In this document: one piece after another, positions 1 to 8,878 of the stretch
Position numbering within the stretch: the stretch's first letter is position 1
Layout of the letters: each line of letters begins with the position of its first letter
From: an uncultured archaeon
GTDB taxonomy: Archaea; Asgardarchaeota; Lokiarchaeia; Sigyniarchaeales; Promethearchaeaceae
Direction of reading: 5' to 3'
NCBI GenBank assembly: GCA_964426185.1
Contig: CAYRPF010000046.1
Coordinates: 1-24,448, forward strand
Length of the DNA stretch: 24,448 bases
Notes under the pieces: model-generated
Seen by the model: only the letters and a program-made list of their open reading frames with translations
Told to the model about the DNA's origin: nothing
Database searches by the model: none
Position numbers and translations under genes: made by a program

Positions 1-54
1 AAGTCGCACGTCCAGTTCTGACGAACAGGAGGACTTAGGTCCCCCCTGATTCAT
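1..54 (+). mobile_element. 3' end of a group II intron (3' half of domain V plus domain VI with bulged branch A); truncated by the window edge
   Basis: 1-18 AAGTCGC-AC-GTCCAGTTC matches the 3' arm of group II domain V (consensus ...GAAAGTCGCACGTnCnGTTC, with the 2-nt AC bulge). 23-52 folds as a DVI hairpin: GAA(23-25)/TTC(50-52), bulged A49, CAGG(26-29)/CCTG(45-48), GGAC(31-34)/GTCC(39-42), TTAG loop. It ends in AT (53-54), matching the AY 3' splice consensus. Confidence 0.8.
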
Positions 55-84
55 GCAATAATTTTCTTATTTTTCTTAAAGAAC

Positions 85-1221
85 TTAATTTATGCTCGAA
101 ATTATAGCATCAATTACGGTTGTGTCTAATGCAGGAGAAAATGGTTTGACTATTCGTTGATTTAATAATTGATCAAGTTTTAAATCAGCTTTCACCAATG
201 CTGAAAGAAATTTCTTTTTAGAATCTTCAAATGGATTATTTTTTTCAGAAAATTGATAAATATGAATAAGGCATCCTTTTGGATGGAGAAAATCCGGTAG
301 AATCGATAAGAAATCAAGATTTTTCTCAGGTAGATTCATAATTAATCGAGAGATCTTATGGAACATTTTCGAATAATAAGGAGAATTATGAATTTGAGTA
401 ACATCTTGGGAAAAGCAAATAATATTTTCCGTTATTTTATTCAACCGGATATTCTTTTGAGCATATTTTATTGCAATGGGATTAATATCAGTTGCAAACA
501 TTTCCATATTGGGATTTTTTTTTGCAATTTGAATAAAATATGGGCCTACACCACAAAACATATCCCATAATGCCCCTCTTTGGTTAAATTCAGTATTAAG
601 AACAGCAATGCGATTTCGCTCATATGATAATCGAGGAGAAAAGAAGATTTTACGAATATTCAACTGAAATCTACACCCATTTTCTTTATATGTGGTAATT
701 GGATCATCTACTCCACAGACAAAGTTTAATTGCCTAGTTCGGAACACCCCTTCAATATTTCCTGCCTTTTCGAAAACTGTTTTAATGCTTGGATTAGATT
801 TTATTAAGTAATTTCCAATGTCCATTAGATATGGGCGTAATGGAATTAAATTTTCCCGATTTAAATCAATAATAACAATTGTTCCAATAATATCAAAAGA
901 ATTAGGGAGAAGAGTATGTAACTTTGGGGGGATTTTTCGTAATAACTCTTCTTTAAAATTATTATGGATTTTTTTACGAAGAGAGAAATGGAATTGGTTA
1001 TTTGTGTTATTCAAAATTTCAATTTCACGGCGAATTTCTTGAGGTAAACTAAAAATTTGTGAATTCACTTCATTGATAAGCGGTGCGAGAATAAATTGAT
1101 CTTGGTGGGAGATCCGATAACGAGAATCTAGAAGATTGTTATCTTGCAACCAGGGAATAATTGTATTTCCCTTAATTTTAGGAAATCGTGCTATTTTTTG
1201 GGGAAATTTTTCGATGCACAT
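85..1221 (-). CDS. trm5: Trm5/Taw2-family class I SAM-dependent tRNA methyltransferase (m1G37)
   Basis: SFDIIGTIVII, GVFRTRQL, YKENGCRFQLNIRKIFFSPRLSYER, SAM motif DMFCGVGPY, DINP and IMNLP are all characteristic of Trm5. Confidence 0.88.
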   Translation of the reverse strand: MCIEKFPQKIARFPKIKGNTIIPWLQDNNLLDSRYRISHQDQFILAPLINEVNSQIFSLPQEIRREIEILNNTNNQFHFSLRKKIHNNFKEELLRKIPPKLHTLLPNSFDIIGTIVIIDLNRENLIPLRPYLMDIGNYLIKSNPSIKTVFEKAGNIEGVFRTRQLNFVCGVDDPITTYKENGCRFQLNIRKIFFSPRLSYERNRIAVLNTEFNQRGALWDMFCGVGPYFIQIAKKNPNMEMFATDINPIAIKYAQKNIRLNKITENIICFSQDVTQIHNSPYYSKMFHKISRLIMNLPEKNLDFLSILPDFLHPKGCLIHIYQFSEKNNPFEDSKKKFLSALVKADLKLDQLLNQRIVKPFSPALDTTVIDAIISSIN

Positions 1222-3433: not shown

Positions 3434-4639
3434 TTATCCTGGTAAATCTTGAATTAAATGCACGGCAAAATTGAATATGTCGTTAGAATTCAATTCTACA
3501 AAACGCGCTTGAATCTTTTTTCCAACATAATGACTTGCCGAGAAGATTGTAATAAGTTTGTCATCAAAATCTTTATGAAATCCCTCAGAAAATACTTGAT
3601 GCCCGCGAAATACCAAATCAATGTGATTTTTAAGACAAAAACTGCGAAAAATTTCTTCACCGAAGGCGTATCCAATTCCTCGACGATTGTTGTAGAATTG
3701 CTCACCTTCTCCAATAACATAATTCATTATTGGATCATTCCACAAGATTTGCTGAGTGATAGAATCCATTTCATCAATCCACACCTGACGATTGTTAAAA
3801 TTGTGGATGTTAAGTAAAGGAACTTCATATTCTTCTGATTCTTGATTTACCATAAAGGGGATTCCTCCATGTAAACAAAGAAAACTACCATTTTCTCCAT
3901 GAAATATCGAGATTAGAGGTAAATCCTTAAACATGTGGCAAAAAGATGCAAATATCATTTCTGAAAATACTTTCATTACCCTTTGACCAAATCCATAATT
4001 TGCAGAAATGGACATTTCTTCATGATTACCGCGTAAAATTAGAACATTTTTAGGATATTTCAAGTTGAATGTCATAAAATATAATAAATTATGTAAATCC
4101 CAATAACCTCGGTCGACAATATCTCCAATAATAATTATTTTAACTTCATAGCCATTTTTATTTCCTTTTTCAATCATTCTCACAAAGTGATTAATTAATT
4201 TGGTCACATCACTGAAGGATCCATGAGTGTCACCGACCAAAAAGAATTTTGCAGGACGTTTAACTGTATTTTTGGTTGAGCGATAAGATTTTTGAATAAT
4301 TGGAACAGGAAAAGATAAAGGATATACTTGTTCTAAATAGAAATCTTGGAATTGTCTAAGTAAAATGGTAATGTTTAATTCCGCCGCATCATCTCCAAAA
4401 TATTGAGATGAATCAGGAGGATTTGAAGAAGAAAATTGTTGATAATAGTTCCAAAAGTCTTCGACGATAGTGGCTTCAGTAGTTTGACCGATTCGACGCG
4501 TTTTACCTTCCAAAATCATTTTAGTTTGAGTTTTTTCAATCTCCATGAAAGTGGATTGCAAATTGTAATGAATATTTTTACCTATTTTCTGAGTTCGCTC
4601 ATTGTATTCATTTTCTTCTTGATACTCATCATGCCTCAT
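3434..4639 (-). CDS. PPP-family Ser/Thr protein phosphatase with N-terminal extension
   Basis: GDTHG, GDIVDRG, LRGNHE, LHGG, ILWNDP, RRGIGYAFG, RGHQ and FSASHY form a complete PP1/PP2A-type motif set. Confidence 0.92.
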   Translation of the reverse strand: MRHDEYQEENEYNERTQKIGKNIHYNLQSTFMEIEKTQTKMILEGKTRRIGQTTEATIVEDFWNYYQQFSSSNPPDSSQYFGDDAAELNITILLRQFQDFYLEQVYPLSFPVPIIQKSYRSTKNTVKRPAKFFLVGDTHGSFSDVTKLINHFVRMIEKGNKNGYEVKIIIIGDIVDRGYWDLHNLLYFMTFNLKYPKNVLILRGNHEEMSISANYGFGQRVMKVFSEMIFASFCHMFKDLPLISIFHGENGSFLCLHGGIPFMVNQESEEYEVPLLNIHNFNNRQVWIDEMDSITQQILWNDPIMNYVIGEGEQFYNNRRGIGYAFGEEIFRSFCLKNHIDLVFRGHQVFSEGFHKDFDDKLITIFSASHYVGKKIQARFVELNSNDIFNFAVHLIQDLPG

Positions 4640-4663
4640 CGTAATTTTCCTTCTAATTTCTTT

Positions 4664-5779
4664 TTAAAGCAATATTTCTTGTAATTCAGAGTTTAATTCT
4701 TCTTCAGTAACTGCAATAAGCTTTGGTGTTTTTCCAAATTCCAATTTTAGAATTTTAGGAGAAAATTGAACTTTTCCATCATATGAAGCAGTGCTAAACA
4801 ATGAATATAACCTTCCATCAAAAAATATTCTGAAACCTTCTGCCCATTTTTGATGTCCTCTAACTACAAGATGAAGATCATTTGCACGCATAAATTCATC
4901 AAAAACTCTTCTTCCAAATTGCATCCGTCCATTTAAATGGTCTCCTGTTAAAATTCCTTCTTGTATCATTTCATCTGGATCTGACCAAAGCATGGAAACC
5001 GTAAGTGGATCCATCTGATTGCTTTCTGGTTTTTCACATTCTAGATGGGGTTCAATTTCTGACAAAATAAGAGGTGTCATAAAATCATATGCATTAATTG
5101 GAATCCCACCATGCACCGTTAATACTCTCGCAATTTGTTCGTCTTTATGAATTTGGCTGATATGTGCAATTGGGAGGTGTGTGAAGAATTTTAGGATTTC
5201 CTCATATAAGATTTCCCCTTTTTCCCAAAAGGCACGCAGTAAATTATCAAAAAAACCATAATTTTCATTAATGATTCGATCTTCATGATTTCCCCGTATG
5301 AGAACCACATTATCTGGGCAGAGTAAATAAAAAGCAACAATTAAAGTCAAATTTTCTAAATCATAGGGATTTCGATCTACATAATCTCCCACAAAAATTA
5401 ATTTTGTATTTGGATTTTTTTGTAAAATTTGATAAAAGAATTCGATTATCAAAAATGATTCATGAATTGCGCCGTGAGTATCACCAACAAAAAAAACTGG
5501 GGCATATATATCATCAATTAAGATTTTTTTCTTAAGTTTAGGGATGATGCGATTTACCTCACGGTAGAATGCAAAATATTTCTCATAACTTAGTGGATTT
5601 TGTAAAAAATTAAACTCCCTCAAACATTGGTTAACAAGATGCTCAAATACCTCTCGAATAATTGGATTGATTGTGTTATTTTGTAAGATAATTTCAGAAA
5701 TATTTTCATGAGGCAATTGTCGATATTCAGGTGAATTCAAAGAAAAGAAATGCTTAGTAAAATTGTTGTAGTTTTCCAT
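4664..5779 (-). CDS. Second PPP-family Ser/Thr protein phosphatase
   Basis: GDTHG, GDYVDRN, IRGNHE, VHGG, LWSDP, RGHQ, FSTASY. Confidence 0.92.
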   Translation of the reverse strand: MENYNNFTKHFFSLNSPEYRQLPHENISEIILQNNTINPIIREVFEHLVNQCLREFNFLQNPLSYEKYFAFYREVNRIIPKLKKKILIDDIYAPVFFVGDTHGAIHESFLIIEFFYQILQKNPNTKLIFVGDYVDRNPYDLENLTLIVAFYLLCPDNVVLIRGNHEDRIINENYGFFDNLLRAFWEKGEILYEEILKFFTHLPIAHISQIHKDEQIARVLTVHGGIPINAYDFMTPLILSEIEPHLECEKPESNQMDPLTVSMLWSDPDEMIQEGILTGDHLNGRMQFGRRVFDEFMRANDLHLVVRGHQKWAEGFRIFFDGRLYSLFSTASYDGKVQFSPKILKLEFGKTPKLIAVTEEELNSELQEILL

Positions 5780-5791
5780 AATTATTCTCCT

Positions 5792-6625
5792 TTAAGGGTA
5801 TTCGAGCCGAATTTTCTCAATATTTGACAAATTATCAAAAAATTTTTTAAAATCAATTATGATTATAGAAATGTTATCGTCTATATTTCTATCCATCGAA
5901 AGTGAATATAATTTCATCACTATATCTTGTAATGTTTCTTTATTTGTTCGTTGTTGAAGAATTTTATTAATTTCCTGCTCGTTAACCTTATCAGTGAGAC
6001 CGTCGGAACATAAAACAGCATAATATTTCGAATGGAAGATATGATAATGATTTTGAACATCTGGCAGATATGCCCAATTGAAAACCTTTATTTCGGGTTG
6101 AACTTCATCTTGTCCTATTGCTTCAACAATTTCGTGAGCAGCACCAGTTCCAACATGATCAAGGCTTACTTGTCTAATTTCATCATCTTTTACCAAGTAA
6201 GCCCTGCTATCCCCTAAATTAAAAATCCAAACCCAAGGTCCAAGCAATAACAACCCAACCAAGGTGGTTTTAGGAATATTACCTTTCTGAATTTCATCAG
6301 AATATTTCTGAATTAATTCTTGATTCGTTTCTTGTATTGCTCGCTTAATTATCTGTTGAATTTCAGAAAGAATTACATTTTGAGTAAAAAGGTAATTCAA
6401 TATTTTCATTGGCAAGTGCTTTATTACAAAACTTGATCCTTCATCTCCGTGATGGGAAGCTGAAACTCCATCACATACTAATGCAAGAATCCCTTGATGA
6501 GAGAAATACTTGTCTTTAATATAAGCTGGTGCACATTTAACATCAAATTGGAGATAGAAGACAGAATCTTGATTCCCTTTGTTTTTTCCACCTACATCGC
6601 AAATAATTCCGTAATATTTCTGCAA
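5792..6625 (-). CDS. PP2C/PPM-family protein phosphatase
   Basis: NQDS, VCDGVS, TTLV, NLGDSRAY, SLDH, LCSDGL and DDNIS motifs. TTG start preceded by an AGGTGA RBS. Confidence 0.92.
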   Translation of the reverse strand: MQKYYGIICDVGGKNKGNQDSVFYLQFDVKCAPAYIKDKYFSHQGILALVCDGVSASHHGDEGSSFVIKHLPMKILNYLFTQNVILSEIQQIIKRAIQETNQELIQKYSDEIQKGNIPKTTLVGLLLLGPWVWIFNLGDSRAYLVKDDEIRQVSLDHVGTGAAHEIVEAIGQDEVQPEIKVFNWAYLPDVQNHYHIFHSKYYAVLCSDGLTDKVNEQEINKILQQRTNKETLQDIVMKLYSLSMDRNIDDNISIIIIDFKKFFDNLSNIEKIRLEYP

Positions 6626-6657
6626 TTTTGATTTTCACCTAAAATGAAAAGCTATTT

Positions 6658-7989
6658 TTATTCTAAATCTAAAACCGATATTAATTCAAATACACCTCTC
6701 ACTGTAGTATGTTTTATAGATATTTGATGATTGATTTGGATCGGTATCCATTGATCTTTTGGGATTTCTTGGCCATTTAGCATAGTCGGATTACTATTTC
6801 GCCCCTCATGTATATAAAACAAATTACGTTCACGACTATAACCTAAAAAGAATTGCTCGCGATTTCGATCTTGACCTTCTTTAAAACACCGGGTAATTCC
6901 TCGAAAAACTCCACGGTATTCTTGTTTCCAAGGTGCAGATTCTACGATTAATTCTCTACCAATTCGTTTGTTTTGATTCTCTTCTAAAATCATTTCCATT
7001 GGATTTAGTTGAATGATTGCATTGTTATTAATAATCCGCAAAACAAACATATTTCCCGTTTCAATTGATGGTAATTGGTTTAATCCGCCCGTTTTTCCTG
7101 ATAGATGTTGTTCTAATGCATGTTTAATATCTTTAAATGTCCGAAAACGATCTTTTGGTTCATATTGTGTGCATTTTTCCACTACATCATTTAAAGTGTC
7201 CGAGATTTTCATATTATAATCTTGAGGGTGCAAGATGTAATCTGAATTAATAGTTGGTTTAACTCGAGTATATCCATTAGTTAACGCATAAAACAAGACT
7301 GCTCCAAACATGTAAATATCTGTTTGAGGTAAAGGTGGCTTTTGCATTATAATTTCAGGCGCAAAAAATCCCGGAGTTATGATAACAGTTCCTGATCCTT
7401 CCATGTCTTCAATTAAAGGAGGTTCATCTAACAGAGTTTTAGGATCGAATAATCGGCCACCACCCCAGTCTATAACAATAGGATATGGATCACCGTTTTT
7501 TTGAATTATCATGATGTTATTGAAGGTAAAATCTCGATGAATTGCACCTTGTTTTTGAGCAAAAAACATAAAATCACATAATGGTAAGAAAATCTTCCTA
7601 ACAATATCATCAACTCCTAAAGGTTGTGTTGATCGCAAGTTATCATTAAACCAAGTCTTCAAAGTAGTGGCTTTTTCAATAAAACTAAAAACGAGGAAAA
7701 ACTTGGGATTGCTACGATCTGTTTTATCTTCGTAAGCTTCAATAAACTCCATATGAGGTCCAGGATAACCAGATACTGCTTTTGTGATATCCCTTTCACG
7801 TTCCCAATACATTCGTGCTTCTGCTATAGATGAGAATGCTGCACCTTTAAATAATTTAATCGCAACTCTTTTCTGAGTTTTATGAATAACCGCTTTATAG
7901 ACAGATCCAAAGCCGCCATCCCCAATTTTCTCCACAATTTGATATGTATTTTTTAATTTTAGTTTTGAGTCGATTTTTATATCAGTCAT
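6658..7989 (-). CDS. Hanks-type Ser/Thr protein kinase with C-terminal FHA-like domain
   Basis: IGDGGFGSVY, VAIK, alpha-C Glu (WERE), HRDFTFNN, IDWG, TPGFFAPE, DIYMFG and DRF. C-terminal RIGRE...ITR...SNPTMLNG resembles FHA. Start moved from 8037 to ATG 7989, which has a GTGAG RBS-like site and removes the overlap with the upstream gene. Confidence 0.9.
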   Translation of the reverse strand: MTDIKIDSKLKLKNTYQIVEKIGDGGFGSVYKAVIHKTQKRVAIKLFKGAAFSSIAEARMYWERERDITKAVSGYPGPHMEFIEAYEDKTDRSNPKFFLVFSFIEKATTLKTWFNDNLRSTQPLGVDDIVRKIFLPLCDFMFFAQKQGAIHRDFTFNNIMIIQKNGDPYPIVIDWGGGRLFDPKTLLDEPPLIEDMEGSGTVIITPGFFAPEIIMQKPPLPQTDIYMFGAVLFYALTNGYTRVKPTINSDYILHPQDYNMKISDTLNDVVEKCTQYEPKDRFRTFKDIKHALEQHLSGKTGGLNQLPSIETGNMFVLRIINNNAIIQLNPMEMILEENQNKRIGRELIVESAPWKQEYRGVFRGITRCFKEGQDRNREQFFLGYSRERNLFYIHEGRNSNPTMLNGQEIPKDQWIPIQINHQISIKHTTVRGVFELISVLDLE

Positions 7990-8002
7990 AATACTCACTT
8001 TT

Positions 8003-8878
8003 TTAATATACCCAGATATGGATCTTGAAGAATCCACTCCTTATTTGGGTAAGAACATTTTCTTTTAATGGAATTAATTGATTTGGATGAAAAATATGTT
8101 GATTTTGAGGGAAATATCGTGCATCTAGCTCGGAAACTGAATTTTCAAAAACAGAAAATAGTGTAAAAGATTGTGTTTGTGAATTATAACGGATAGAAAA
8201 GACGGGTTTATCTAACGAATATTTTTGAATCAATTGTTCGTAAATTTCGTCCGGAACATATGCCTTTGCATTCTTAATTAGATCCTTAGTTGAAACGGAC
8301 AAATCTTGACCATAAAGAAGATATTCAACATTATTATTTAAAATTGAAAACTTGCACGAAAGTAGTGAAGTATCAGATTTTGTGGATTCCTTTTGTTGAA
8401 AAGACTCGAATTGGAATGGTTCTTCCCAACATACTTTTGTAGAAATGGTAGAGGGCTTTAATTCACTTCTTTTCATAGTTCCATTATAGATAAATTCGGA
8501 TTGTCCACATAAATCACACACTTTTGCCTCCAAAGGGAGATGGTGGTGATTTTTTTCTTGGATACAATCCGGTTCGGAACATTCTTTAGTGGTAAAGGGA
8601 TAAAAATCATTCTCAATTCCGCATTCGCAAACATAATTTCTGCTATTAAGTTCTTCTGAAGAATATTCTCGCTTACAATTATTACATACCCATCGAATTA
8701 ATAAAGGACTTGTTTTAGGCATTAATACTTCTCGTGAAATAACATCATGATTGACTTTACCATCAATAAAGAAAGGGAATTTTAATTTACATCCATTTCC
8801 GCAGAATTTTTGAGAGATATTTTTGTAAACGGTGTGACAATTGCGACAAATTTTGACTTGTTCTAAATCCTCACTCAT
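8003..8878 (-). CDS. Multi-zinc-ribbon protein with a possible highly degenerate FHA-like C-terminal domain
   Basis: Cys clusters CRNC, CGNGC, CNNC, CEC, CSEPDC and CDLC. The C-terminal region is beta-rich but has no canonical FHA residues. Start overlaps the upstream stop (8875-8878). Confidence 0.65.
   Translation of the reverse strand: MSEDLEQVKICRNCHTVYKNISQKFCGNGCKLKFPFFIDGKVNHDVISREVLMPKTSPLLIRWVCNNCKREYSSEELNSRNYVCECGIENDFYPFTTKECSEPDCIQEKNHHHLPLEAKVCDLCGQSEFIYNGTMKRSELKPSTISTKVCWEEPFQFESFQQKESTKSDTSLLSCKFSILNNNVEYLLYGQDLSVSTKDLIKNAKAYVPDEIYEQLIQKYSLDKPVFSIRYNSQTQSFTLFSVFENSVSELDARYFPQNQHIFHPNQLIPLKENVLTQIRSGFFKIHIWVY

Follow-up and report, generated by a model that had tools for sequence, protein, structure and literature searches.

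A group II intron terminus at a contig start of a Lokiarchaeia-type Asgard archaeon, from a family that probably ends in G and inserts behind genes

The first 55 nucleotides of the window (the whole 24,448-nt stretch of DNA that was analysed) are identified here, by comparative sequence analysis, as the 3′ terminus of a group II intron of an Asgard archaeon. The intron boundary very probably lies after G55, with a terminal G in place of the AY dinucleotide, and we infer from the mobile unit that the excised RNA would likewise end in G. With somewhat less assurance, we consider it likely that the copies compared form an Asgard-restricted CL-type lineage in which a terminal G (5′ GU...G 3′) replaced AY while canonical branch spacing was kept, which homes to oligo-pyrimidine (terminator-like) tracts behind genes and in which gamma is unmatched to the last base.

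The window lies on contig C46, one of 155 contigs in a metagenome-assembled genome (MAG; G000), and base 1 of the window is base 1 of the contig. The intron is cut at its 5′ side because the window begins at the contig start; a break of the assembly inside the intron would be explained by the intron being a multi-copy repeat. Contigs C5, C16, C18, C23, C30, C48, C66, C81, C86, C104, C116, C118, C120 and C121, cited below, belong to the same genome. The comparison sequences include a sibling-assembly contig, L120, the contigs L009, L010 and L011, which likewise extend the window upstream, the closed genome G135 of the same genus, and the JGI metagenome contig L124. The features at the start of the window and immediately upstream of it are as follows.

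1..18, + strand: 3′ part of domain V, with the end of the GAAA tetraloop (1-2), distal strand (3-7), AC bulge (8-9) and proximal strand (10-18)
L120:6594-6609, beyond the start of C46: 5′ half of domain V
19..22, + strand: J5/6 linker UGAC, from an alignment of 8 family members; unpaired in the structure tested
23..52, + strand: domain VI hairpin, with a basal helix of 3 bp (23-25/50-52), bulged A49, upper helix and UUAG loop, from the predicted fold
53..55, + strand: 3′ tail AUG, with the probable boundary after G55 and not T54, from filled versus empty sites
56..84, + strand: 3′ exon, an AT-rich spacer of 29 nt to the trm5 stop codon
85..1221, − strand: trm5/taw2-type tRNA methyltransferase gene, convergent with the intron
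386..437, + strand: trm5-internal segment with a copy in the 5′ exon of the intron (blastn E 1e-18)

Taken by themselves, the first 54 nt are not statistically convincing. Rfam at the gathering threshold gave no match on the window alone, a truncated match to RF00029, cut by the contig start, scored 17.4 bits (E 0.36), and the fold of the 54-nt fragment (z-score −1.2) was no better than that of shuffled sequences. These values speak for a likeness to domains V and VI that arose by chance, or for bacterial contamination at the contig end. Such an origin is nevertheless extremely improbable, because extension upstream yields a full domain V and an RF00029 match above the gathering score of 40 (50.8 bits, E 2e-7, in L009, L010, L011 and L120), because an RT, the 5′ end of the intron and domains I to III are recovered, and because both intron flanks are Asgard genes that L120 spans in one contig. 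The initial annotation, which had proposed a group II intron 3′ end at positions 1 to 54 and had named the RF00029 covariance model on the extended sequence as a check, was thus borne out on its central point.

The complete domain V, 34 nt long (L120:6594-6627), has the AGC triad in its 5′ arm, the AC bulge and the GAAA loop. The complementary 5′ arm with the triad, on which the initial annotation had staked its claim, lies directly upstream in five other assemblies, and the domain V 3′ arm with its AC bulge and the domain VI hairpin with a single bulged A49 are positioned exactly as had been described. Across 8 family members, 97.5% of the domain V and VI pairing is retained, compared to at most 51% in slid controls, and six pairs (four in domain V, two in domain VI) show compensatory changes. 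The bulged A49 is invariant across this alignment of 8 members and is the putative branch point.

The host is, by protein comparison, a Lokiarchaeia-type Asgard archaeon: the best named relatives of the TgtA encoded in the window are from Lokiarchaeota and Promethearchaeota, with 76% to a closed genome and 62% identity to Lokiarchaeum ossiferum, in agreement with the Asgard host suspected initially. The trm5 product matches Pfam TRM5-TYW2_MTfase (1.1e-30), plus TYW2_N_2 and Trm5_N. The Trm5 protein, encoded at 88-1221 (−), is present in identical form in five other assemblies, all of which share the same junction with the upstream continuation. L120 is 100% identical to C30:1-5545 plus C46:1-931 and bridges the two in one contig, and synteny with G135 places contig C30, read backwards, next to C46.

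In L120 the intron occupies positions 5480-6664 (1185 nt) and has the 5′ end GUGCG, an instance of the GUGYG that had been predicted. This 5′ end lies at C30:66 (L120:5480), and the same start is found in at least 10 family copies. The element therefore spans C30:66 to C46:55, and its interior of 1064 nt is absent from the MAG itself. The additional genomic copies that the initial annotation had called for were also found. Further GUGCG 5′ ends of the same family were observed at contig ends, at C118:1-94 (−) and C66:19206-19345 (+), both after T/C-rich tracts; the C66 copy is internally deleted.

The interior of the intron at the trm5 locus differs by assembly. L011 contains an ORF with RVT_1, YADD and a GIIM maturase domain, its stop located 34 nt before domain V, so that the expected RT/maturase ORF with YADD is present and is accompanied by GIIM. 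In L120 the RT gene is internally deleted, with residues 1-85 and 413-508 of the full-length relative left in different frames. The last 372 nt of the intron are identical in L120 and L011, and therefore the short-read assemblies cannot phase the deleted and the full-length form at the trm5 locus. L010 carries a 625-nt form with no ORF. Domains II and III are missing from it, and both its 5′ flank and its own 5′ sequence are different; a chimeric assembly or a dead derivative is the probable explanation.

Full-length relatives of the intron are about 2.17 kb long, and their RT scored 334.8 with TIGR04416 against a cut-off of 300. The RT of the family has RVT_N, RVT_1 and GIIM domains and no endonuclease domain. 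Its best solved relative is the T.el4h maturase (6ME0, chain 6ME0_C; E 1.3e-77, full-length alignment), and the IIC RTs GsI-IIC and E.r. score far below this match. The RTs form a tight clade (at least 47% identity) in which the only named members are Sigynarchaeota, followed by a gap to bacterial RTs at 41% identity or less. Among GTDB species representatives, the sole RT match above 50% identity is from an uncultured archaeon, and the next matches, at 34-45%, are from Anaerolineae, Microvirga and many cyanobacteria. The RT is present in 31 of 400 genomes of the host phylum and in 7 of 13 of the host family. The intron lineage thus appears, as far as it has been seen, only in Asgard archaea, and the RT clade above 50% identity comprises archaeal members only. 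We classify the element as a probable CL-like, IIB-type, endonuclease-less group II intron, an assignment made by RT similarity and RNA alignment.

The RNA outside domains V and VI was evaluated by an RNAalifold consensus of five copies, in which domain I occupies columns 7-392 and domain II columns 397-432, followed by J2/3 and domain III. This domain I to III consensus contains 150 pairs, 41 of them with compensatory changes. The Rfam D1-D4 models gave no match on full copies. In each of the five copies, a loop at about intron positions 210-217 forms base pairs with exon positions −15 to −8, and these covary; in G135 the 8-mer is AU-mixed and not a pyrimidine tract. Because the pairing is kept in all five copies, including this AU-mixed one, we take it to be EBS2-IBS2. 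For EBS1 and EBS3, no consistent candidate was found in the copies compared.

The position of the 3′ boundary was evaluated from the junctions of all intact copies. A G follows the presumed AY in each of them, namely in the window, L124, L014, L015, L016, L017, the G135 copy L114, G279, G160 and the inner intron of C18. By site, the G follows the presumed AY at 9 of 10, and the flanks diverge directly past it. The mobile unit ends in AUG in the family of the window, in ACG in L016 and L017, and in UUG in C18, G279 and G160, so it does not have the usual AY at its 3′ end. In the decayed G135 copy (L115/L126), a T stands in place of the G.

Two comparisons of filled and empty sites bear directly on this G. 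L124, which does not include the 5′ junction, carries at another site an intron 3′ part identical to that of the window locus over its 234 nt, reading ...TTCATG followed by TCGATA.... At the corresponding C16 end of the MAG, which is empty, the L124 flank follows directly after the pyrimidine tract CTTTCT, and there is no G. The second comparison lies in a 180-nt repeat of G135. The filled copy (L125) has T9, then an intron ending in CATG, then CTTCC; the empty copies, L127, L128 and L129 of G135 and C120 of the MAG, have a T-run followed by CTTC, again with no G. C120 was also considered as the footprint of a lost intron, a reading that was dropped because C120 can be aligned with the empty copies, from which three substitutions separate it. 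The G135 trm5 spacer and the C104 counterpart of the L014 flank were tried as further empty sites and rejected as too diverged, and a search of JGI metagenome contigs for a trm5-spacer allele without the intron, in which 0-3 junction bases were allowed, gave no match.

A third line of evidence is the nested case on C18, where the linker, basal helix and GAGG layout of the outer relic agree with those of related copies only when the G is counted as part of the inner intron. Assignment of this junction G to the exon, which would give a perfect 8-bp helix, was dropped after comparison with the L101 and L105 layouts and with the empty sites.

If the intron ends at G55, A49 is followed by six bases and is the 7th base from the end, compared to the 6th if the end is U54. 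An end at G55 therefore gives the branch A its canonical place, 7th from the end, which is the usual spacing by reference to the Rfam consensus and bacterial relatives and according to published work (PMC3753933). The initial annotation had taken AT as the terminal dinucleotide, and in light of the filled and empty sites the element is most likely one base longer, to G55. Its suggestion that the splice site or the domain VI geometry might be atypical was borne out for the splice site: the probable end at G55 restores the usual branch spacing and gives a non-canonical terminal G.

The alternative is a canonical end at U54 (AU), with G55 as the first base of the 3′ exon, an IBS3 to a fixed EBS3; the empty sites would then lack the G and be empty for that reason. 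AU and AC agree with the AY consensus, which is that of the great majority among group II introns and no absolute rule (PMC4424553), and a single EBS3 in the family would give a single +1 base. In addition, the cyanobacterial CL relatives show perfect covariation between the J2/3 base that precedes GAU and the base that ends the intron (A-U in 9 copies, G-C in 7), and in five of five aligned Asgard copies the base before GAU, gamma, is an A, which would match the penultimate U54 and not G55. Against this, a canonical end needs two independent coincidences, in that the G is the sole junction difference in both filled/empty pairs and that the empty sites have the right pyrimidine tract. It also leaves every member with its branch A in an unusual place, 6th from the end, the nested domain VI layout on C18 fits relatives only without an extra G, and the AC of L016 and L017 leaves an A-C mismatch with gamma regardless. 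It is because the J2/3 A matches U54 and not G55 that a boundary after G55 is held as very probable and no more firmly than that, and that an end at U54 is given as unlikely. No account of a group II lineage that ends in G turned up in the literature searched, which was limited.

With respect to its location, the intron lies between convergent genes, 81 nt past the stop of the upstream gene and 29 nt from the trm5 stop. This agrees with the earlier proposal of an intergenic insertion that adjoins the trm5 stop and has an AT-rich 3′ flank. The upstream gene is co-oriented with the intron and encodes a 276-aa coiled-coil product, and the G135 spacer at the same syntenic position has no intron. 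The targets of eight copies are T/C-rich tracts, and five to six of seven sites have the end of a co-oriented ORF 24-106 nt upstream. Within the species, at least one site is polymorphic, being empty in C16 (C16:48100-48190) and filled in L124 (L124:195-330), and this argues for recent mobility. A 9-nt tandem duplication in the flank is a further difference between the C16 and L124 alleles.

We propose that EBS-IBS pairing guides the introns, as they insert by reverse splicing, to oligo-pyrimidine tracts a short way past the ends of genes, and that insertion behind genes would keep the family harmless. The pyrimidine tracts may be archaeal oligo-T terminators, which would make them a "safe harbour" like that of class C introns, reached by another mode of recognition. 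The intron at the trm5 locus would be transcribed by read-through from the upstream gene, which is on the same strand, and no host reading frame would depend on its removal. For efficient splicing or for movement, the RT-deleted copy would depend on RT provided in trans by a full-length one. This explanation as a whole (a CL/IIB-type intron that ends in G, homes behind genes and is transcribed by read-through) is one in which we place high confidence; it is from DNA boundaries that splicing, the branch point and the precise 3′ splice site are deduced.

A different question, which concerns activity and not identity, is whether the trm5-locus copy is an inert fossil, that is, a real group II remnant past splicing or moving. 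In the sole assembly that spans the trm5 locus the RT gene is deleted and frame-shifted, the single intact intron RT of the MAG is on C18 and belongs to a different subfamily, and decayed copies occur elsewhere (the C66 end, L115 of G135 and the C18 outer relic). On the other hand, the trm5-locus copy keeps all conserved pairs of domains I to III, V and VI, the 3′ part identical to it over 234 nt is polymorphic at the C16/L124 site, which points to recent mobility, and a matching version that contains the RT exists in the population (L011). We therefore regard a fossil as possible but doubtful.

The closest known systems are the cyanobacterial CL/IIB introns (T.el4h, Thermosynechococcus). The likeness lies in the RT, which aligns over its full length with the same domains and no endonuclease, in EBS2, in the alignable domain V, J2/3 (xGAU) and domain III, and in a domain VI basal helix of 3-4 bp with a 3-nt tail. 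The RTs, however, have only 34-45% identity to the Asgard family, which also lacks an Rfam D1-D4 match and targets oligo-pyrimidine tracts. The tail itself differs, being AUG, ACG or UUG in the Asgard copies versus AAY or GAC in the cyanobacterial ones, and the Asgard gamma is unmatched to the terminal base.

Group II introns have already been reported in Asgard archaea (PMC5709842; PMC9887622, including "a separate CL type"; bioRxiv 10.1101/2024.12.10.627823). The introns of these studies (Vosseberg & Snel 2017; Vosseberg et al. 2023; Mattick et al. 2024) share with ours the host clade, the bacterial type of element and a CL-like RT/maturase. As far as consulted, the work consists of protein classification and RF00029 counts (PMC5709842, PMC9887622, bioRxiv 10.1101/2024.12.10.627823), and we came across nothing in it on the boundaries of the introns, their target sites or a terminal G.

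Among other archaea, the introns of Methanosarcina (Dai & Zimmerly 2003, as related in PMC4424553 and PMC8919778) are intergenic or lie within other introns and have CL-type IEPs, and ORF-less or ORF-deleted derivatives live off full-length copies. Nested and ORF-less archaeal copies are already known (PMC4424553). The Asgard family resembles them in its intergenic sites, nesting (here on C18), ORF-deleted copies and probably CL-type IEP. It differs in RT clade and host phylum, in its insertion mostly into pyrimidine tracts behind genes and not into intron ORFs, and in its non-canonical 3′ end.

Class C (IIC) introns insert after intrinsic terminators, recognise the terminator hairpin and do so without EBS2. 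The outcome is the same as in the Asgard family, namely insertion just past gene ends with little harm, but the Asgard introns have an EBS2-IBS2 pairing and an RT closest to CL and are thus not of class C. Precedents for a 3′ splice site away from the canonical AY after domain VI are found in the B.c.I4 "domain VII" introns, which have shifted 3′ splice sites (PMC1865049, PMC2691827), and in B.a.I2, which has alternative 3′ splice sites (PMC4424553). The shifts in these introns are 4 nt or 53-70 nt with canonical pairings kept, whereas in the Asgard introns the spacing is canonical and the terminal bases differ.

Spliceosomal introns are presumed to descend from group II introns, and the group II introns of Asgard archaea figure in arguments on the origin of eukaryotic introns. 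Their mere presence in Asgard archaea was already known, and what is new is a lineage with an apparent G boundary, normal branch spacing and an unmatched gamma. If these introns are spliced at the G, they would be natural group II ribozymes with a terminal guanosine at the 3′ splice site, like spliceosomal introns, and such a ribozyme would occur in the closest archaeal relatives of eukaryotes. The lineage could serve as a system for testing how 3′ splice-site recognition by group II introns can change. Pipelines that assume AY would place the ends of G-ending Asgard introns one base short. That the introns target pyrimidine tracts behind genes suggests how they may persist without harm in compact archaeal genomes.

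Several minor observations were made on the sequences around these introns. The 52-nt piece of trm5 listed above (386-437) has a copy, 49/52 identical, at C30:96-147 (L120:5399-5450), directly after the stop of the upstream gene. The copy is present in four assemblies and would be antisense to the trm5 mRNA if it is on the read-through transcript.

Contig C18 contains a complete 2.25-kb intron that ends in UUG and encodes a 510-aa RT, at C18:2487-4733 (−) (L117). This inner intron directly follows the domain V of a relic, C18:4741-4774 (−), of a second group II intron of another kind, and neither a 5′ part nor an RT was detected for the relic. In G160 C58, where two RT genes lie 650 nt apart, an intron ending in UUG is followed at once by the apparent 5′ end of another, minus its first three bases (L098:3150-3250); an odd junction between tandem or nested introns is a possible reading.

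The product of a multi-copy repeat at L010:3519-4337 (−) is a 272-aa protein that is rich in lysine and has no match in Pfam or NCBIfam; the repeat has a conserved end motif of about 45 nt. It occurs in the MAG itself at C48:8560-8881, C23:38652-38923, C86:1703-1986, C81:8439-8574 and C5:35388-35534 and at the ends of C116 and C121, and it has the look of an unclassified insertion sequence. Behind the ORF of this type of repeat, at a distance of 106 nt, lies one intron copy.

In the approximately 180-nt repeat of the second filled/empty comparison, the intron target lies about 20 nt in from the left end, and the copies are 84-95% identical to one another. The repeat was found at C1:1799020-1799200, 3383895-3384075 and 88475-88655 of G135 (L127-L129) and at C120:124-262 of the MAG; among its possible identities are a small RNA gene, a promoter module and a MITE.

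Lastly, positions 3434-14011 (−) of the window hold two metallophosphatases, a PP2C phosphatase, a Ser/Thr kinase, an FHA protein and a VWA protein, together with three proteins without a Pfam match (291, 544 and 450 aa), and this cluster looks like a phospho-signalling module.
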